From UHGV virus genome UHGV-1752853: 22,496 nt of DNA, one strand, 5' to 3'. The position numbers and the translations under genes were made by a program. Source of the DNA: a virus. Numbering within the stretch: the first letter of the stretch is position 1; the number at the start of each line of letters is the position of its first letter. Positions 193 to 9,966 of this stretch are shown piece after piece. The notes under the pieces are model-generated. The model did not search any database. It saw only the letters and a program-made list of their open reading frames with translations, and was not told where the DNA came from.

Positions 193-220
193 AGGCTGCG
201 CAACTGCGTGGCCTTTTTTG
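193..220 (+). terminator. Second terminator-like hairpin upstream of the esterase gene
   Basis: AGGCTGCGC-AACT-GCGTGGCCT stem (two G-U pairs) followed by TTTTTTGTTTTT. Confidence 0.35.
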
Positions 221-283
221 TTTTTCTGGCTGCTGAAAGTGGCAGTCACAGTCCTTCATATCACCCGTGACCGGGGAGGAACA

Positions 284-2215
284 ATGACGTTTAAACATTA
301 TGATGTGGTCAGGGCAGGTTCAGCATCAGGGCTTGCTGAGCAGCTGGCACAGAAGATAAAAGAAGGGTGGCAACCGTATGGCAGTCCTGTGGCTGTCACA
401 CCAAACATCCTGATGCAGGCTGTTGCTGCAGAGGGTGATGTGAGCACGCCTGTGGTTGTTCCCGGCACGGGAGCCGGCGTAGCATCGGGAGTGACATCCG
501 GGGAGCCGGATTATTACTACGTGGTGGTACTCGCCGGACAGTCGAACGGGATGGCGTATGGTGAGGGTATTCCTCTTCCGGAGACTTACGACCGTCCTGA
601 CCCGCGTATCAAGCAACTGGCCAGACGCAGTACGGTAACGCCGGGTGGTGAAGCCTGTTCTTATAATGATGTCATTCAGGCAGACCACTGCCTGCATGAT
701 GTGCAGGATATGAGCAGCTTTAACCATCCGAAAGCTGATCTGAGCAAAGGGCAGTACGGGACTGTCGGTCAGGGACTGCATATTGCCAAAAAACTGCTGC
801 CTTACATTCCGCAGAATGCCGGGATACTTCTGGTTCCCTGCTGTCGTGGTGGTTCGGCATTCACCACCGGGGCTGATGGCTCATTCAGTGAGGCCAGAGG
901 TGCTTCTGCTGACTCTGCATGCTGGGGAGCCGGTAAACCCCTGTATCAGGACCTGGTAAGCCGCACCAGAGCGGCACTGGCGAAGAACCCGAAAAATAAA
1001 CTTCTGGCTGTGGTATGGATGCAGGGAGAGACAGACCTTGCATCAGGAAGTCAGCAGCATAATGGTTTATTCACTGCCATGGTTCAGCAGTTCAGAACAG
1101 ACCTGTCTTCAGTTGCAGCGCAGTGCGTGAGTGGAAATGCTGGCACGGTGCCGTGGATTTGTGGTGACACGACATATTACTGGAAGGCAACGTACGGTAC
1201 GCAGTATGACGCCTTATACAGCGCGTATAAAACGCTGTCAGCACAGCATATCTTCTTTGTTCCGTTCCTGACGGATGAGAATGGACAGAACACGCCAACG
1301 AATGCTCCGACGGAAGACCAGGATATTGTGGCTGTCGGGTATTACGGTGCGGCATCCAGAACAAACGGGAATTTCGTTGCGGCACAGCGCGAAAGTCATT
1401 TCAGCGCATGGGCACGCAGGGGCATCATTTCTGACCGTCTGGCCTCCGCTATTCTGCTCCATGCAGGGCGCACGGCTGAACTGATGGGCGGGCAGGTCGT
1501 GACACCACCGGATGAGAAGCCGTCACCTGACACCCCGTCAGCGGACGGGAAATCAATGACAACGCTGCTTTCTTACCGGGCATCGGAGTCAGGCGGAGCA
1601 CTGAAGTCACAGGGATGGGCGGCTGCCGGTGGGAGTGCCATTATTGTTGATGATGCCGGTGCCAGTGAAGGTAAGGCACTGAAACTGACCAAACAGACCG
1701 GAAGGTCATGGGCTGTACAGCATGATGCCGGTAATGGTGCCGACCTGCTGGAAAAAGGTGGCCTTGTCAGCTGTCGTTTTAAACTTGATGGCGCGCTTAC
1801 GGCTAATCAGTACGCACTGGCGCTGTACTGGCCGGTTTCTTCGCTGCCTCAGGGCGTCACACTGGAAGGTAATGCCGGTCATAACCTGCTGGCATCGTTT
1901 TACGTTCAGAGCGATGCCACAGACCTTAACGTGATGTACCACAAGGGTAATCCGGACCAGAACACGAAGCTGGGTTCATTCGGTGCATTTAATAACGAGT
2001 GGCATACGCTGGCATTCCGTTTTGCCGGTAACAACAGTATTGAGGTAACGCCGGTGATTGATGGTCAGGACGGAACACCGTTCATGCTGTCGCAGTCTCC
2101 GGTAGGGACACTGGCGGCAGACAAGTTACGCCTGACCGATATCACCAGTAATGCAACGTATCCGGTACTGATTGACAGCATTATGGTTGAAGTGAATAAC
2201 CTGTCAGCAGGATAA
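284..2215 (+). CDS. nanS-p: Prophage-encoded sialate 9-O-acetylesterase, NanS-p-like (N-terminal DUF1737-like domain plus SGNH-type esterase domain)
   Basis: ORF track 218-2215; start moved to ATG 284, which has a GGAGGA RBS at 275-280. N-terminus MTFKHYDVVRAG...KEGWQPYG and the esterase motif VVLAGQSNGMAYGEG are recognised from memory of Stx/lambdoid prophage NanS-p proteins. Position just upstream of the lysis cassette fits. Confidence 0.7.
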   Translation: MTFKHYDVVRAGSASGLAEQLAQKIKEGWQPYGSPVAVTPNILMQAVAAEGDVSTPVVVPGTGAGVASGVTSGEPDYYYVVVLAGQSNGMAYGEGIPLPETYDRPDPRIKQLARRSTVTPGGEACSYNDVIQADHCLHDVQDMSSFNHPKADLSKGQYGTVGQGLHIAKKLLPYIPQNAGILLVPCCRGGSAFTTGADGSFSEARGASADSACWGAGKPLYQDLVSRTRAALAKNPKNKLLAVVWMQGETDLASGSQQHNGLFTAMVQQFRTDLSSVAAQCVSGNAGTVPWICGDTTYYWKATYGTQYDALYSAYKTLSAQHIFFVPFLTDENGQNTPTNAPTEDQDIVAVGYYGAASRTNGNFVAAQRESHFSAWARRGIISDRLASAILLHAGRTAELMGGQVVTPPDEKPSPDTPSADGKSMTTLLSYRASESGGALKSQGWAAAGGSAIIVDDAGASEGKALKLTKQTGRSWAVQHDAGNGADLLEKGGLVSCRFKLDGALTANQYALALYWPVSSLPQGVTLEGNAGHNLLASFYVQSDATDLNVMYHKGNPDQNTKLGSFGAFNNEWHTLAFRFAGNNSIEVTPVIDGQDGTPFMLSQSPVGTLAADKLRLTDITSNATYPVLIDSIMVEVNNLSAG

Positions 2216-4326: not shown

Positions 4327-4860
4327 ATGAATACAAAAATCAGATACGGCCTGTCGGCTGCCGTTCTGGCACTGATTTCCGCAGGGGCTTCTGCGCCTGA
4401 AATCCTTGACCAGTTTCTGGATGAGAAAGAAGGCAACCACCTGACGGCATACCGTGACGGTACGGGTATCTGGACCATCTGCCGTGGCGCCACAATGGTG
4501 GACGGTAAGCCTGTCGTTCCTGGCATGAAGCTGACGAAGGAAAAATGCGACCGAGTGAACGCCATCGAACGGGATAAGGCGCTGGCGTGGGTGGAGAAAA
4601 ACATCAAAGTGCCACTGACTGAACCGCAGAAAGCGGGCATCGCGTCATTCTGTCCGTACAACATCGGGCCTTCGAAATGCTTCACCTCAACGTTTTACCG
4701 GAAACTGAACGCCGGAGACCGGAAAGGTGCATGTGCTGAAATCCGCCGATGGATATATGACGGCGGCAGGGACTGTCGGAACCGCTCAAATAACTGTTAC
4801 GGGCAGGTATCGCGGCGTGACCAGGAGAGCGCGCTGGCGTGCTGGAGTATCGACAGATAA
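4327..4860 (+). CDS. R: Endolysin, GH24 T4-lysozyme-like with N-terminal SAR/signal-like segment
   Basis: Catalytic-triad-like spacing E-x8-D-x5-T in EGNHLTAYRDGTGIWTICRGAT; weakly hydrophobic Gly/Ala/Ser-rich N-terminus (YGLSAAVLALISAGASA) typical of SAR endolysins paired with pinholins. Confidence 0.85.
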   Translation: MNTKIRYGLSAAVLALISAGASAPEILDQFLDEKEGNHLTAYRDGTGIWTICRGATMVDGKPVVPGMKLTKEKCDRVNAIERDKALAWVEKNIKVPLTEPQKAGIASFCPYNIGPSKCFTSTFYRKLNAGDRKGACAEIRRWIYDGGRDCRNRSNNCYGQVSRRDQESALACWSIDR

Positions 4861-4988: not shown

Positions 4989-5052
4989 TGGCAGTAGGTT
5001 ATGGGAGGCTGCCTTGATTGATTTTAGCAAACTGATTAGGGAGTTGCGACTC

Positions 5053-5148
5053 ATGACTGGTCAATTACCAAACTGGAAGTTTCTGCTGGTCTGGAGCATC
5101 CCGTTTTTATGGGTGGTATCCCAGTTAATTACCGCAATTAAGGGGTAA
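5053..5148 (+). CDS. Small hydrophobic peptide (31 aa), hypothetical
   Basis: ATG 5053 with AGGGAG upstream; sequence MTGQLPNWKFLLVWSIPFLWVVSQLITAIKG has one predicted TM helix; the track ORF 4960-5148 begins inside the terminator hairpin so the start was moved. Confidence 0.3.
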   Translation: MTGQLPNWKFLLVWSIPFLWVVSQLITAIKG

Positions 5149-5150
5149 AC

Positions 5151-5282
5151 ATGTCAGACAAACTCATAAAACTGGCGCAGGTCCTCTGTGTAATTGTCGG
5201 CATTTCATTGTCAGCAATGCTGGTTGCTCTTTTTCTTTCCACGGCCTGGCGAGTATTGACTTTATCCGGGCTGCTGGGGTGA
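5151..5282 (+). CDS. Small membrane protein (43 aa), hypothetical
   Basis: ATG 5151 with AAGGGG RBS 6 nt upstream; MSDKLIKLAQVLCVIVGISLSAMLVALFLSTAWRVLTLSGLLG; stop 5280-5282 directly precedes Rz; below the track length cutoff. Confidence 0.35.
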   Translation: MSDKLIKLAQVLCVIVGISLSAMLVALFLSTAWRVLTLSGLLG

Positions 5283-5289
5283 CGGTGAT

Positions 5290-5757
5290 ATGAACCGTGT
5301 TCTGTATGTGGTGCTTATTGCCCTGCTGCTTGGTTGTGGAGCGCTGTGGCTGGCAACAGACCATTACCGTGATAACGCCATGACCTACAAAGCGCAGCGC
5401 GATAACAAAGCCAGTGAACTGGAGAAAGCGAATGCAACCATTACTGATATGCAGCAGCGCCAGCGGGATGTTGCTGCACTCGATGCAAAATATACAAAGG
5501 AGTTAGCCGATGCGAGAGCTGAAAATGAAACTCTGCGCGCTGATGTTGCCGCTGGTCGCCGCAGCCTGCGGGTCAACGCCACCTGTGTGTCCACCACAGA
5601 TAAAACCACCGGCACCACCAGCATGGATAATGCAGCCCGCCCCCGACTGGCAGACACCGCTCAACGGAATTATTTCACCCTCAGAGAGCGACTGATGACG
5701 ATGCAGAAGCAACTGGAAGGGGCACAGCTCTACATCAATGAGCAATGCCTCAGATAA
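5290..5757 (+). CDS. Rz: Rz i-spanin (inner membrane spanin subunit)
   Basis: N-terminal TM followed by HYRDNAMTYKAQRD...DVAAGRR...RLADTAQRNYFTLRERL...YINEQC, recognised as lambda Rz-like. Confidence 0.85.
   Translation: MNRVLYVVLIALLLGCGALWLATDHYRDNAMTYKAQRDNKASELEKANATITDMQQRQRDVAALDAKYTKELADARAENETLRADVAAGRRSLRVNATCVSTTDKTTGTTSMDNAARPRLADTAQRNYFTLRERLMTMQKQLEGAQLYINEQCLR
5510..5695 (+). CDS. Rz1: Rz1 o-spanin (outer membrane lipoprotein), embedded in the +1 frame of Rz
   Basis: Lipobox LVAAAC followed by a proline-rich segment; the segment from PPAPPAWIMQPAPDWQTPLNGIISPSE onward resembles lambda Rz1; wholly embedded in Rz. Confidence 0.75.
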   Translation: MRELKMKLCALMLPLVAAACGSTPPVCPPQIKPPAPPAWIMQPAPDWQTPLNGIISPSESD

Positions 5758-6093
5758 AAACCGGTAAGGGATAATCCGCTTAAGATTTACCGGTGGCGAA
5801 GAGAGCCAAAGCATCAAATTACGCGATTACCTGTAGCAGTACAATATATTGTTTACGTTTTCTTATTAATTCCAGATGTATGTCTGTGCGCCGTGTCGTC
5901 GCCGTATTCCCGTATTAACAGAGACCGCAGCCCGACGGGGAGACTCTTCTGCGCGAGTGTGCGGGAATAATCAGAAACGATATACACCGGGTTTTACCGC
6001 GTGAACGGGACGCGGGTTTACCCCACATGGTCGTCCATCCGGTGCGATGGTGGAAGAAACCGGAACACTCAGTACTTGCATGGAAGGAATAAA

Positions 6094-6118
6094 AAAAGCC
6101 GCAGGTGGTATGCGGCAT
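6094..6118 (-). terminator. Minus-strand rho-independent terminator
   Basis: GCCGCA/TGCGGC 6-bp stem (6100-6118 on +) with a 7-nt loop; the A7 run at 6093-6099 becomes a U-run on the minus strand. Confidence 0.5.
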
Positions 6119-6121
6119 AAA

Positions 6122-6211
6122 ATGGCACGAATTGAAGAGTGGTTTATCTTAGCGTTTATATTTTTATCTTATATCTGTGCTGTTGTTCAATTCGTTATTT
6201 TTGTCGGCTGA
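6122..6211 (+). CDS. Candidate 29-aa hydrophobic peptide (possible type I toxin-like ORF)
   Basis: ATG 6122 to TGA 6209-6211; MARIEEWFILAFIFLSYICAVVQFVIFVG; no clear SD; start lies immediately 3' of the hairpin; speculative. Confidence 0.2.
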   Translation: MARIEEWFILAFIFLSYICAVVQFVIFVG

Positions 6212-6226
6212 TTCATCTGCTTATTT

Positions 6227-6275
6227 TTACGTGACTGCTGATTTTTCACGTAATGCATCAGATTAATTTAATCTG
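6227..6275. promoter_or_regulatory. Two adjacent dyad-symmetric elements (candidate operator sites or minus-strand promoter region)
   Basis: TTACGTGA-N11-TCACGTAA at 6227-6253 and perfect palindrome CAGATTAA-T-TTAATCTG at 6259-6275, in an AT-rich intergenic region. Confidence 0.3.
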
Positions 6276-6478
6276 CAGTTGTTATCATTTTTTCGGATAT
6301 TCCGTAATATTGAAGCATTTAATTATATTTATGTACATATTCAGGATGTGTGATTTTACATAACAGTGACAGTAGCTTCCGTTGCAATATGTGGCATGGT
6401 GGCAGATGTTATCACAAGTAATAATGACTCACGGTAAATTTTCATGCTAAATGTTAAATGATTATCTGTGAAATAATA

Positions 6479-6601
6479 ATGGATACCAGAGTTATTTTAG
6501 TCTTTTTTCCTGCTCTTTTATTTGTATCTACGGGGTCTTTCGATGAGATGGAACGTTACAAGGCTGCAAAGGAACATACGAATGGAGATGTGAGAAAATG
6601 A
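6479..6601 (+). CDS. Small ORF (40 aa) with hydrophobic N-terminus, stop overlapping the next start (ATGA)
   Basis: ATG 6479; MDTRVILVFFPALLFVSTGSFDEMERYKAAKEHTNGDVRK; TGA 6599-6601 overlaps ATG 6598 of the downstream ORF. Confidence 0.3.
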   Translation: MDTRVILVFFPALLFVSTGSFDEMERYKAAKEHTNGDVRK

Positions 6602-6846
6602 AATTCCAGCTGGCAAGAATTTATAAAGGTGATCTGTTTGCATGTTTTGGTATTGCAGTAAACGGTGAATTGCTGGAAGGACAATTGTCTTCCCGGATTA
6701 ATACTGAGGCGATAAACTTTCCTTCCGTTACGATCGAATTCCGACTGACCTGTGAAGAAATTGGAAACAGTATTGACATTAACGTGAACGAGATCCTGAC
6801 GAGTAAACACACGGATGAAAGATACCGGAGTTTGCCTCGTCAGTAG
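6598..6846 (+). CDS. Hypothetical acidic protein (82 aa), unrecognised
   Basis: ORF track; preferred over the overlapping minus-strand ORF 6556-6849, which has only a TTG start and no Met anywhere. Confidence 0.4.
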   Translation: MKFQLARIYKGDLFACFGIAVNGELLEGQLSSRINTEAINFPSVTIEFRLTCEEIGNSIDINVNEILTSKHTDERYRSLPRQ

Positions 6847-6858
6847 CAAACGGAGCGT

Positions 6859-7047
6859 TTATTTCATATTGGTTGATGAGAGCATTTTTCTGTCCGCACT
6901 CAGCCTCCGGCGACAGGCCTCAATGACCCATGCTGAAAAATTTCCCGACTCTTTTTTGTCAAGAGCGATATTGATCTGCTCAATCATATGATTCGGAAAA
7001 CGGATATTGCGGGTTGTGGTTCTGCGGGTCCGGTTTTTCGATGACAT
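6859..7047 (-). CDS. Ribbon-helix-helix (Arc/MetJ-like) DNA-binding protein (62 aa)
   Basis: AAGGA SD with 7-nt spacer before ATG on the minus strand; sequence RNIRFPNHMIEQINIALDKKESGNFSAWVIEACRRRL fits a beta-strand/helix/helix pattern resembling P22 Arc. Confidence 0.5.
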   Translation of the reverse strand: MSSKNRTRRTTTRNIRFPNHMIEQINIALDKKESGNFSAWVIEACRRRLSADRKMLSSTNMK

Positions 7048-7087
7048 TGTCTGTTCCTTTATTTCTGCATCCTGACGGAGATTTTAC

Positions 7088-7453
7088 ATGGCGGCATTAC
7101 CTGTACTCCAGAGCCGAATTAAACCCCTGAGCACCCGACGAATGAATGTCCTGCAGGGTGAAGACCGACGCATCAGTGGTCGGGCAAGAGTGAATCTCAA
7201 ACGCAGGATCTGGCAGAGGGATGGCGGTCGCTGTTGTCTTTGTGGGCGTGTTGCTGACCTGTGTGACAGTGAACTCGATCACCGCATTGCTCTTCAGTTC
7301 GGTGGTGGTAATGAGGAGGCCAATCTCTGGACACTCTGTACGGAATGCCATCGTCTGAAGTCAGCCCGTGAGATGGCGAGCGGTATGCCGGATCCGAGGT
7401 TGCCGGAAGTGTCGGGTAGTGCCGACAGAACCGACGACATCATAGGGCTCTGA
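7088..7453 (+). CDS. HNH endonuclease (terminase/cos-associated, HK97 gp74-like position)
   Basis: HNH/zinc motif CCLCGR...ELDHRIALQFGG...NLWTLCTECHRLKS; sits directly upstream of the cos-like region and small terminase. Confidence 0.85.
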   Translation: MAALPVLQSRIKPLSTRRMNVLQGEDRRISGRARVNLKRRIWQRDGGRCCLCGRVADLCDSELDHRIALQFGGGNEEANLWTLCTECHRLKSAREMASGMPDPRLPEVSGSADRTDDIIGL

Positions 7454-7738
7454 CCAGACCCCGGGGGGGAGCTTACGGCGAAAAAAAACGATCGCCACGG
7501 ACACCGCGCCCCCCCTCACGCAGAGAAAAAATTCCCGTTCAGAAGTTATAAACATGTTTATACCATACATGGCGCTTTTCTGCATTTTTTACTTTTAAAT
7601 TCATTGTGTTGCTGGAGAAAAATGTTTATACCCTGTCCCCGCAAAATGTTTACAGGGCAGCGGTAAACATTTCCCCTGTTGCATCCATTCTCACCGGGGT
7701 GATTGCTGAAATTTTTCTGTGTTTTTCCGGAGGGAGGA
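7454..7738. other. Putative cos region: G7/C7 dyad (candidate cosN) plus repeated ATGTTTAYA elements (candidate terminase-binding sites)
   Basis: GGGGGGG at 7463-7469 and CCCCCCC at 7509-7515 in inverted context; ATGTTTATACC at 7554-7564 and 7622-7632, ATGTTTACAGGG at 7646-7657, inverted GTAAACAT at 7663-7670; lies between the HNH and TerS genes. Confidence 0.5.
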
Positions 7739-8317
7739 ATGCTGACGACGCAAAAACGAAAATTTGCGCTGGCGCTGATGTCGGGTAAAAACCGAACGGC
7801 CTCCGCCATTGAAGCAGGCTATTCAGAAAAGTCAGCCAGGTGTAAAGGTTCACAACTGGCAAAAGATCCGGAAGTGCTCGCTTTTATTGCCCGTAAAAAA
7901 TGCGAGATGGTGGAGGTGGATGAGGTTCCTGTTTACCGGAAGAAAAAAACACAGACAGAGGATAACAACCGGTGCTCAGGGACAACAGAAAAGAAAACAC
8001 AGACCGCACCAGAGCCGGATAACGATAAAAGCCTGCCGCCAGTGCCTGCCGGTATACCAGGCGTTGATTACATGGAGGACGGCCTTCCTGACCCGGTGAA
8101 AGCCATGGGCAGGATCCTGGTGGAAAACCTCAGCGTTGATCCGAAACTGGCACTGGATGCGGCCTGGCGACTGGCGCAGTTCACGCACCACAAAAAAGGG
8201 GATGCCGGTAAAAAATCGGCAAAAGGTGAGGCGGCAAAAAAAGCGGCTAACCGTTTTGCCACACCTGCGCCGCCGCCCCGTCTGGTGGTGAATAACAATC
8301 GTGAGGGAAATGAATGA
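7739..8317 (+). CDS. Terminase small subunit, P27 family
   Basis: GGGAGGA RBS then ATG 7739; N-terminal KRKFALALMSGKNRTASAIEAGYSEKSA helix-turn-helix pattern typical of P27-family TerS; 4-nt overlap with TerL. Confidence 0.75.
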   Translation: MLTTQKRKFALALMSGKNRTASAIEAGYSEKSARCKGSQLAKDPEVLAFIARKKCEMVEVDEVPVYRKKKTQTEDNNRCSGTTEKKTQTAPEPDNDKSLPPVPAGIPGVDYMEDGLPDPVKAMGRILVENLSVDPKLALDAAWRLAQFTHHKKGDAGKKSAKGEAAKKAANRFATPAPPPRLVVNNNREGNE

Positions 8318-9966
8318 CACCTGTATGGAGCACGGCATGTCCGGACTGGGCGGCGCGTCTGAAAAAAGGGCAGTCGATAATTCCGGCCCCCATTTATCCG
8401 GACCAGGCCGCGCAGGCACTGGCGATTTTTAAACAACTGCGGATTGTTGATGCACCGGGCAGTCCGGCGTTCGGGCAGGCCTGTGCCCCGTGGGTGTTTG
8501 ACCTGGTGGCGGCCCTGTTTGGCTCCTGTGATGCGCAGACCGGTGTACGCCATATCAAGGAAGTGTTCATTCTGATACCCAAGAAAAACTCCAAATCCAC
8601 GCTGGCCGCCGGGATCATGATGACGGCGCTGTTACTGAACTGGCGGCAGGCGGCGGGCTACACCATTCTGGCACCGACCGTGGAGGTTGCCACCAATGCC
8701 TTCAATCCCGCCCGCGATATGGTTAAGTGGGATGATGATCTGGATGATCTCTGTCAGGTGCAGACGCATATCCGTACCATCACCCACAGGATGACGGACA
8801 CCACCCTGAAGGTGGTGGCTGCGGATCCGAATACAGTGTCCGGTATCAAGTCTGTGGGGACACTGATTGATGAACTGTGGCTGTTTGGCAAGCAGTACAA
8901 GGCAGAGGACATGTTACGTGAAGCCATTGGCGGACTTGCCTCCCGTCCGGAAGGGTTTGTGGTGTATACGACCACACAGTCGAATGAGCCACCCGCCGGG
9001 GTGTTCAGGCAGAAGCTGCAGTATGCCCGTGATGTCCGTGACGGAAAAATTCATGATCCGCACTTTCTGCCGGTGATTTTTGAGCATCCGCCGGAGATGG
9101 TGGCCAGCGGGGAGCACCTGCTGATGGAGAACCTTGCCATGGTGAACCCGAATCTGGGGTATTCCGTGGATGAATCCTTTCAATTCCGAAAGGCAAAGGA
9201 GACGGGTGAAGAGGCTTTTCTCGGATTTATGGCAAAACACGCCAATGTGGAAATCGGTCTTGCCCTGCGCTCTGACCGGTGGGCAGGAGCGGATTTCTGG
9301 GAGCAGCAGGGTCGGAAGATAAGTTTTGAGGATATCCTGGCACGTTCTGAAGTGATCACTGTGGGCATTGACGGTGGAGGGCTTGACGATCTGCTGGGGA
9401 TGTATGTCATCGGCAGGGACCGGGAGAGCCGTGAATGGCTGGGCTGGGGGCATGCCTGGGCGCATGAAACCGCGATGGACAGACGAAAGAGCGAGGCATC
9501 CCGTTTCCAGGATTTTGTGGCCTGTGGCGATATGACCCTTGTCCGGCGGGTCGGGGATGACACGGCGGAGGTGGCGGAATATGTCAGGCGTATCCATGAG
9601 GCCGGGTTACTTGATCGTATCGGCATCGATCCGTCCGGCGTCGGACAAATTCTGGATGCGCTGGTGGAGGCCGGCATTCCGGAAGAGGGGGTGGCGGGGA
9701 TAAGCCAGGGCTGGAAACTGGGCGGTGCCATCAAAACCGCGGAACGCAAACTGGCGGAAGGTGTGCTGGTGCATGGCTGGCAGCCGATGATGGCCTGGTG
9801 TGTGGGGAATGCCAGGGTGGAGCCCAGAGGTAACGCCATTCTCATCACAAAACAGGCCAGCGGGAAGGGGAAGATAGATCCGCTGATGGCGCTGTTCAAT
9901 GCGGTATCCCTGATGTCGCTGAATCCGGAGCCGAAAAAGAAAGAGTACAGGGCTTTTTTCATATGA
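8314..9966 (+). CDS. Terminase large subunit
   Basis: 550 aa; Walker A-like ILIPKKNSKSTLAAG; length and position follow TerS. Confidence 0.85.
   Translation: MTPVWSTACPDWAARLKKGQSIIPAPIYPDQAAQALAIFKQLRIVDAPGSPAFGQACAPWVFDLVAALFGSCDAQTGVRHIKEVFILIPKKNSKSTLAAGIMMTALLLNWRQAAGYTILAPTVEVATNAFNPARDMVKWDDDLDDLCQVQTHIRTITHRMTDTTLKVVAADPNTVSGIKSVGTLIDELWLFGKQYKAEDMLREAIGGLASRPEGFVVYTTTQSNEPPAGVFRQKLQYARDVRDGKIHDPHFLPVIFEHPPEMVASGEHLLMENLAMVNPNLGYSVDESFQFRKAKETGEEAFLGFMAKHANVEIGLALRSDRWAGADFWEQQGRKISFEDILARSEVITVGIDGGGLDDLLGMYVIGRDRESREWLGWGHAWAHETAMDRRKSEASRFQDFVACGDMTLVRRVGDDTAEVAEYVRRIHEAGLLDRIGIDPSGVGQILDALVEAGIPEEGVAGISQGWKLGGAIKTAERKLAEGVLVHGWQPMMAWCVGNARVEPRGNAILITKQASGKGKIDPLMALFNAVSLMSLNPEPKKKEYRAFFI

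Follow-up and report, generated by a model that had tools for sequence, protein, structure and literature searches.

Several small RNAs (sRNAs) of Escherichia coli lambdoid prophages act by base pairing, among them STnc100, the Pas sRNAs, Esr41, svsR, DicF and IpeX. The Pas sRNAs and STnc100 are located by the esterase/holin region (bioRxiv 10.64898/2026.05.13.724894), and svsR in the 3′ end of cI (PMC12803456). The anti-sRNAs of enterohaemorrhagic E. coli (EHEC) prophages are 51–60 nt long, conserved in the 3′ region but variable at the 5′ end; they have a Rho-independent terminator and occupy moron sites (PMC4104026); AgvB and AsxR (EcOnc01-03) of EHEC lambdoid prophages bind Hfq (Tree et al. 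2014, PMC4104026). The present analysis concerns a module of about 115 bp in the UHGV virus genome UHGV-1752853, a stretch of 22,496 nt that is called the window throughout and represents the late genes of a lambdoid prophage of E. coli. From its pattern of conservation we tentatively prefer to read the module as an undescribed, self-contained sRNA gene directed leftward. A 29-codon open reading frame (ORF) on the opposite strand, which an earlier note had proposed as the toxin of a type I toxin-antitoxin-like arrangement, would then be a by-product of base composition.

The likeness to AgvB and AsxR is that of a short moron-type RNA gene in the late region, oriented against the late transcript and present as related, non-identical copies in different prophages. 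The differences are that their families, RF02702 and RF02703, are unmatched even at E ≤ 10, that they lie downstream of PR′/stx whereas the module lies downstream of Rz, beside cos/terminase, and that the module, whose RNA is predicted from sequence, has no evident convergent partner sRNA. With hok/sok (including hokW-sokW), symE/symR and ibs/sib the locus shares a short hydrophobic ORF, an opposite-strand candidate for a terminated RNA over the start codon, and a prophage setting; in contrast to those systems its ORF is unconserved and has no toxin promoter, 5′ untranslated region (UTR), Shine-Dalgarno (SD) sequence or family match.

The base-pairing sRNAs listed at the outset are found at other loci, and none of them matches the module site. 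The svsR and Pas sRNAs were considered as the identity of the module and rejected, both being elsewhere in the prophage. No sequence relationship of the module to the anti-sRNAs, Sok, Esr41, STnc100, svsR or the Pas sRNAs was found. Rfam gave no match at E ≤ 1 over positions 5000–7600 (2.6 kb); at E ≤ 10, positions 6060–6300 returned terminator-driven noise only (Arrc14, E 0.49; CyaR, E 9.2), and the whole window at gathering thresholds returned only STnc100 (1–113). The prophage-sRNA papers cited here do not look for sRNAs at this site, which separates the lysis genes from cos/terminase. If the sRNA reading is true, a new family would join the short list of temperate-phage sRNAs carried into E. 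coli.

A conserved leftward terminator and the module it bounds

Nineteen distinct relatives of the module were collected, all from E. coli lambdoid prophages or from two plasmids, and they fall into five sequence groups. G1 is the window's own type, with five variants in the ORF comparison; G2 is strain A34; G3 comprises M3, M8, SCU-111 and viral contigs; G4 comprises A8, ECOR29 and others; and G5 the two plasmids. Between groups the homology is limited to the ~115 bp from 6089 to ~6205 and the flanks are unrelated. To within 2 nt it sets in where the T-tail ends, and does so in four left contexts that are unrelated to one another; the T-tail, the hairpin stem and the adjacent core are the most conserved parts of the module (Table 1).

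The minus-strand terminator that the earlier note had placed here is borne out. The hairpin GCCGCATACCACCTGCGGC (minus strand, 6116–6098) has six pairs, five of them G-C, around a 7-nt loop, and is followed by the T7 tail TTTTTTTATT. A scan of 5600–7200 gave four terminator-like sites against 1.2 ± 1.0 expected, and this one ranks best. The hairpin is not a terminator for the plus strand, since an A-run precedes it and no T-run comes after. That A-run, of 5–8 residues and read as the T-tail on the minus strand, occurs in 19 of 19 variants; a terminator was found at the homologous place in relatives L002, L003 and L004. In the RNAalifold consensus the terminator is the sole helix (−10.15 kcal/mol), and among 15 sequences 6/6 pairs of its stem are invariant, variation being confined to the loop. 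The leftward terminator is the sole strand-specific element of the module and forms its sharp edge. As a conserved leftward terminator it implies minus-strand transcription that arrives from the right.

Conservation upstream of the hairpin comes in blocks. Within the core a 13-nt segment, AUUCGUGCCAUUU, is near-invariant, with a single C-to-U change in A34 (G2), and is predicted to be unpaired; the core is a candidate seed and Hfq-site region, and its plus strand contains the ATG of the ORF. Beyond the indel-prone stretch two conserved blocks enclose 11 nt of fixed length, which in three diverged G1 relatives are 55–82% identical, against 95–100% in the adjoining blocks; in the near-identical G1 relative L035, 0/11 bases differ there. 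The TTGA of the outer block is invariant in all variants, and the homology between groups fades beyond ~6205. Inside G1 the module is 91.5–99% identical, compared with 58–92% for the flanks, and the differences cluster in the 11-nt stretch, a distribution that looks like that of a promoter rather than that of codons.

Independent support exists for the terminator alone, which speaks for a rival account in which the module is a bare insulating leftward terminator together with the 3′-untranslated relic of an ancestral minus-strand gene, alike in its carriers through recent ancestry and giving no functional RNA. The family is narrow and recent and the candidate promoter described below falls under threshold. 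Both plasmids have a relE/parE pseudogene ~110–150 nt upstream on the same strand, and the window has a ribbon-helix-helix (RHH; DUF3950) gene upstream on the minus strand (7047–6859). The RHH gene, however, is 740 nt distant and is absent from G2–G5, and copies of the module beside cos lack any upstream minus-strand gene. Block-wise conservation takes in about 90 nt on the upstream side of the hairpin, clearly above the flanks inside G1, and a variable stretch of fixed length between two conserved blocks is not expected of a relic. We regard this account as possible but unlikely.

A 10-nt perfect inverted repeat joins the core to the TTGA block (Table 1). As RNA structure, or as evidence of strand, the long stem it would form (6127–6136/6186–6195) was rejected: 78.7% of cells pair across the groups, but 75 of 500 shuffles equal this. 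Some of the changes in it are compatible with G-U pairs on the minus strand, and the stem would require a longer RNA.

The 29-codon reading frame

The ORF described in the earlier note is present, running from ATG 6122 to TGA 6211. Its peptide has a grand average of hydropathy (GRAVY) of 1.8, which lies within chance expectation. After dinucleotide shuffling of the local sequence an ORF of at least 29 codons follows an ATG in 21% of cases (median 13; P = 0.21). The two remaining plus-strand frames of the stretch are likewise hydrophobic (GRAVY 1.3–1.6); all three frames are so because the plus strand is 47% T. There is no SD sequence 5–10 nt upstream of ATG 6122, and the sole SD-like motif, AGGTGG (6103–6108), falls within the loop of the hairpin, at a distance of 13 nt. 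A consensus scan reported no plus-strand promoter for the ORF, and none is conserved across groups. No plus-strand promoter, 5′ UTR or SD sequence can be conserved there, since the flanks to the left of the A-run are unrelated between groups.

Comparison of the groups shows that coding constraint is absent on both strands. From the shared ATG the frame stays open for 29, 29, 29, 29 and 35 codons in G1, 30 in G2, 18–27 in G3, 21 in G4 and 18 in G5. The indels between groups within the ORF are of 1, 1, 1 and 2 nt, never 3, and G1 reads the block GTTT(A/G)TATTTTTATCT, which is conserved, in another frame than G3 and G5 do. Even within G3, a close group, a 2-nt indel and gains and losses of stops give entirely different C-terminal halves. 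The changes in the G1 ORF are ~9 non-synonymous, including one lost stop, against 2–3 synonymous, and are spread 3:4:5 over the codon positions with no third-position bias. Three variants of the peptide match no Pfam family at E ≤ 1, with no match of the Hok/Gef, Ldr, Ibs, TisB, ShoB, Zor or DinQ type, and the peptide matches none of the PHROGs. An exact look-up of the peptide gave a sole record, the ORF with an upstream extension (54 aa), listed for E. coli as a hypothetical protein; a homology search with this extension led to three G1-type relatives, and in STEC299 a 4-nt deletion breaks it.

The ORF is most likely a by-product of the T-rich complement and not a conserved gene. One half of the proposed pair holds up as plausible, namely a minus-strand RNA ending at the terminator 6116–6098, which is the most conserved element and is found in at least four unrelated left contexts. 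The toxin half does not, given a frame and length that vary from 18 to 35 codons, the indels, the excess of non-synonymous change in G1 and the lack of a family. In genome scanning, a type I toxin-antitoxin locus should not be called merely because a short hydrophobic ORF faces a terminator in a T-rich sequence; here the coding reading fell, and the candidate promoter shifted, once a few relatives were compared.

A narrower form of the toxin-antitoxin proposal would confine the pair to the window's lineage (G1, perhaps G2), where a membrane toxin of 29–30 aa would be kept from translation by a minus-strand RNA over its start codon, the copies in the other groups having decayed. The G1 ORF is intact in five variants, all of 29 aa bar one of 35 aa; its changes are all hydrophobic-to-hydrophobic, and a charged N-terminus precedes ~22 hydrophobic residues. 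The predicted antisense RNA would span the ATG and the hairpin upstream of it, in whose loop AGGTGG is located, and the 10-nt inverted repeat could fold an mRNA around the start. SymR on symE and Sok on hok have a similar geometry, with the antisense RNA covering the start. Lambdoid prophages do carry type I loci, for example hokW-sokW (PMC8621323). Set against these points are the loss of frame and length in G3–G5 and the variation inside G3, the non-synonymous excess and lost stop in G1 itself, an ORF of unremarkable length in a sequence hydrophobic in every frame, and the lack of a conserved plus-strand promoter, 5′ UTR or properly spaced SD sequence. No Hok, Ldr, Ibs or TisB-type match in Pfam and no Sok match in Rfam came to light, and the antisense promoter first proposed is not conserved. 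Such a pair is distinctly improbable.

It is very improbable that the ORF gives a late small membrane peptide on its own, an accessory of lysis or of the envelope with a hydrophobic tail under loose constraint, translated just past the lysis genes from the Q-antiterminated late transcript; the terminator would then be unrelated to it. The ATG and the first 4–6 codons (MARIEE or MARISG) are found in every variant and are followed by an open frame, at least 18 codons in all; the location is directly downstream of Rz/Rz1, 42 nt away in A34, and E. coli records call the 54-aa extension as a hypothetical protein. The arguments from frame, length, non-synonymous excess and chance ORFs apply to this peptide equally, however, as does the lack of an SD sequence, and the extension is the one broken in STEC299. 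The A-run and hairpin are conserved as a unit, which a minus-strand reading alone explains.

Candidate promoter and predicted RNA

The antisense promoter of the earlier note, TTACGT and TAAAAT 18 nt apart, is only partly present: TTACGT is at 6253–6248 on the minus strand, but the hexamer 18 nt downstream is TAAAAA (6229–6224), not TAAAAT. A consensus scan of 5600–7200 did not report it; the scan gave a single promoter-like site, at another place, where 3.7 were expected. Among the closest relatives the −10 has become TCAAAA or TTAAAA, and the whole segment is missing from G2–G5. As this promoter is not conserved, neither is the antisense RNA of ~120 nt that was to cover the whole ORF. Both hexamers lie inside an 8-nt inverted repeat, TTACGTGA/TCACGTAA (6227–6253). 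Nearby, at 6259–6275, is a perfect palindrome, CAGATTAA-T-TTAATCTG. These two inverted repeats are probably not functional, since one arm is disrupted in the closest relatives.

Next to cos there is no minus-strand gene or promoter upstream of the module, so that transcription reaching the terminator should start within the module itself. The TTGA block, the spacer of fixed length and the A/T block fit a candidate promoter. When candidate promoters on the minus strand were ranked with a position weight matrix (PWM) at the homologous position in each group, TTGA(nn)-N18-TAAAAA had the top or joint top rank in G2, G3 and G5, whereas in G1 it ranked second to third. In G4 a promoter matching the consensus at 10/12 positions, TTAACA-N18-TACAAT, lies ~20 nt further upstream, also within the module. 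Any promoter would be situated inside the ORF, and its RNA would span just the first 11–22 codons and the start region. A sigma-54 promoter was rejected: TGGCACG fits a −24 element, but no −12 TTGC is found at the distance this would need.

On the sRNA reading that we tentatively favour, the module would be a non-coding, moron-type unit that some lambdoid prophages of E. coli carry where the lysis cassette gives way to the packaging genes. Leftward transcription would start from a weak internal promoter of sigma-70 type (TTGAAC 6190–6185, N18, TAAAAA 6166–6161), and the transcript would stop at the terminator (6116–6089) to give an RNA of ~65 nt, or ~85 nt in G4. The predicted RNA has a variable 5′ end, an unpaired core (...CUCUUCAAUUCGUGCCAUUUUAU), AUUUUAU, the terminator hairpin and U7, which is the layout of an Hfq-type sRNA. 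Base pairing would be its mode of action, with host or phage mRNAs as targets in trans, or with the overlapping rightward late transcript as the target in cis. Hfq-type sRNAs end in a Rho-independent terminator whose U-tail has 6 residues or more and which follows a U-rich single-stranded stretch (Otaka 2011 and Ishikawa 2012, cited in PMC4104026). Here a 6-bp G+C-rich stem is followed by U7 and has AUUUUAU directly 5′ of it; the RNA may depend on Hfq. Comparison of the core with the compared locus sequences gave chance-level matches only and no target.

A number of observations weigh against this reading. The candidate promoter matches the consensus at 8/12 positions, is without the −7 T in most groups and was unreported by the consensus scan, and its PWM score of 4–8 bits is no better than that of plus-strand look-alikes in this AT-rich sequence (for example ATGGCA-N17-TATCTT, 7.6–8.0 bits). 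The fold z-score is only about −2.0; the terminator stem offers no covariation because it never varies, and structure beyond the terminator finds no support in the RNAalifold consensus or in the shuffle test of the long stem. At the sensitivity of BLAST no extended complementary locus was found in E. coli genomes, and the RNA showed no pairing to the region in which the adjacent cargo gene starts. Since the family is small and young, its conservation could in part reflect recent shared ancestry. At least 18 codons remain open after the shared ATG in every variant, and the transcript itself is a prediction from the sequence. More ambitiously, the module might be a working regulatory RNA of an undescribed family: a host-reprogramming sRNA or anti-sRNA beside cos, or a new type I antitoxin in the window's lineage, with the 29-aa peptide made only from the late transcript and tied to induction. 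This is improbable.

Distribution, surroundings and neighbouring genes

Among complete E. coli genomes, 23 of 5426 carry the module. Four of these match the full query at ~92%, and the remaining carriers match just ~6089–6172 or 6089–6207; the module occurs in 1–3 places per genome. A repeat or miniature inverted-repeat transposable element was rejected, there being one copy per locus by nhmmer in those 1–3 places. The phage collection held no copy of the module, and the GTDB species-representative genomes no true match and one chance match. One E. coli plasmid in PLSDB carries it. IMG/VR gave 4 true copies with one search pattern, two further patterns yielding chance matches only. Three metagenome contigs were found: two are new variants within G3 and G4, the third has the same sequence as an IMG/VR copy, and none represents a further group. 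Draft genomes reached through the 54-aa protein supplied additional relatives. The carrier ECOR29 is presumably, from its name, a member of the ECOR reference collection.

The chromosomal copies are all between the lysis cassette and the packaging genes, in surroundings that differ. In A34 the module comes right after Rz, at 42 nt; in other contexts it is upstream of a minus-strand DUF1398 gene or a 193-aa gene. In L003, L009 and L022, which are G3 relatives, GGGTCCTCC...CACGGGGCGG and a lambda-like cos/Nu1 region lie within ~135 nt to the right of the module; what we take to be a lambda-type cosQ/cosN is ~135 nt away, with a plus-strand Nu1 gene. The module would therefore be the last element at the right end of these three phage genomes. 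A cos-related DNA site was rejected as an explanation of the module, its distance to cos ranging from ~60 nt to >1 kb across contexts.

Between the module terminator and the start of DUF1398 there are promoter-like sites on the minus strand (L004 2343–2404, L003 2372–2401), of the form TTTACA-N18-TAACAT or TAAGAT. Their position coincides in G3 and G4, and they probably serve as the promoter of the cargo gene itself. The module is retained where the downstream cargo, DUF1398 or the 193-aa gene, has been deleted. A leader or attenuator of either gene was rejected, as the module persists without the gene and the gene has its own promoter-like sites.

Two relatives, L006 (3674–3802) and L024 (2504–2633), are mosaics in which a G1-type left flank and ‘ATAAAATGG’ are fused to a G3-type body, suggesting a recombination breakpoint inside the module, near window position 6120–6133. 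On the plasmids pCRST010 and pSCU-111-1, which are large and of conjugative type, the module stands amid insertion sequence debris (L005 2501–2622, L028 2501–2622), with a DUF1378 fragment on one side and a relE/parE (and CopG) pseudogene on the other.

Table 1. Positions of the elements of the module and of neighbouring features in the window
Feature	Position	Strand	Description
Terminator T-tail	6089–6097	minus	left module boundary; TTTTTTTAT on the minus strand
Intrinsic-terminator hairpin	6098–6116	minus	GCCGCA-UACCACC-UGCGGC; terminator scan and RNAalifold
Core	6117–6139	minus	predicted unpaired; 23 nt; CUCUUCAAUUCGUGCCAUUUUAU; 4–5 of 5 groups agree per column
29-codon hydrophobic ORF	6122–6211	plus	probably no gene; ATG 6122, TGA 6211; MARIEEWFILAFIFLSYICAVVQFVIFVG
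10-nt perfect inverted repeat, core to TTGA block	6127–6195		ACGAATTGAA (6127–6136) / TTCAATTCGT (6186–6195)
Indel-prone, poorly conserved stretch	6140–6157	minus	indels of 1 and 2 nt, both between groups and inside them; would form the variable 5′ part of the RNA
Conserved A/T block	6158–6172	minus	ATAAGATAAAAATAT; 4–5 of 5 groups agree per column; 95–100% identical within G1
Variable stretch of fixed 11-nt length	6173–6183	minus	2–3 of 5 groups agree per column, no indels; candidate promoter spacer
TTGA block	6184–6205	minus	TTGAAC 6190–6185 (TTGATT in other groups) and ~15 nt upstream; 95.5–100% identical within G1; conserved between groups over 6184–6196
Promoter proposed in the earlier note	6224–6253	minus	TTACGT-N18-TAAAAA; unsupported
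Esterase	218–2215		665-aa esterase-like ORF
Lysozyme	4327–4860		
Rz / Rz1	5290–5757 / 5510–5695		
DUF3950 / YlcI-YnfO-type RHH gene	7047–6859	minus	Pfam E = 4e-19; PHROG 949
HNH	7088–7453		
Small terminase	7703–8317		
Large terminase	8314–9966		

The host of the window is E. coli, since the exact 54-aa upstream extension of the ORF is recorded there as a hypothetical protein; among complete RefSeq genomes the top match is only 87–92% identical. The module adjoins an AT-rich island at ~6100–6850, with 30–40% G+C compared with ~52% around it, and the 29-codon ORF is at the island's left edge. The island carries two overlapping plus-strand ORFs of 47 aa (6458–6601) and 82 aa (6598–6846), the latter matching PHROG 10235, a family of unknown function. 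The DUF3950 RHH gene is convergent with the 82-aa ORF and is a frameshifted pseudogene in STEC299, and the G1 relative L035 lacks ~6445–6720.

At the start of the window, positions 1–113 of the plus strand are the 3′ part of the known prophage sRNA STnc100 (RF02076, 77.9 bits), truncated by the window start and lying just upstream of the esterase-like ORF. To the left of the module, 5883–6065 is a G+C-rich segment that many Stx phages share, as do ~1970 of the 5426 complete genomes of E. coli. In relatives it corresponds to the spacer downstream of Rz and the 3′ end of the minus-strand DUF1398 (ybcV-like) gene; because most of that gene is absent from the window, the segment is a deletion remnant abutting the module.

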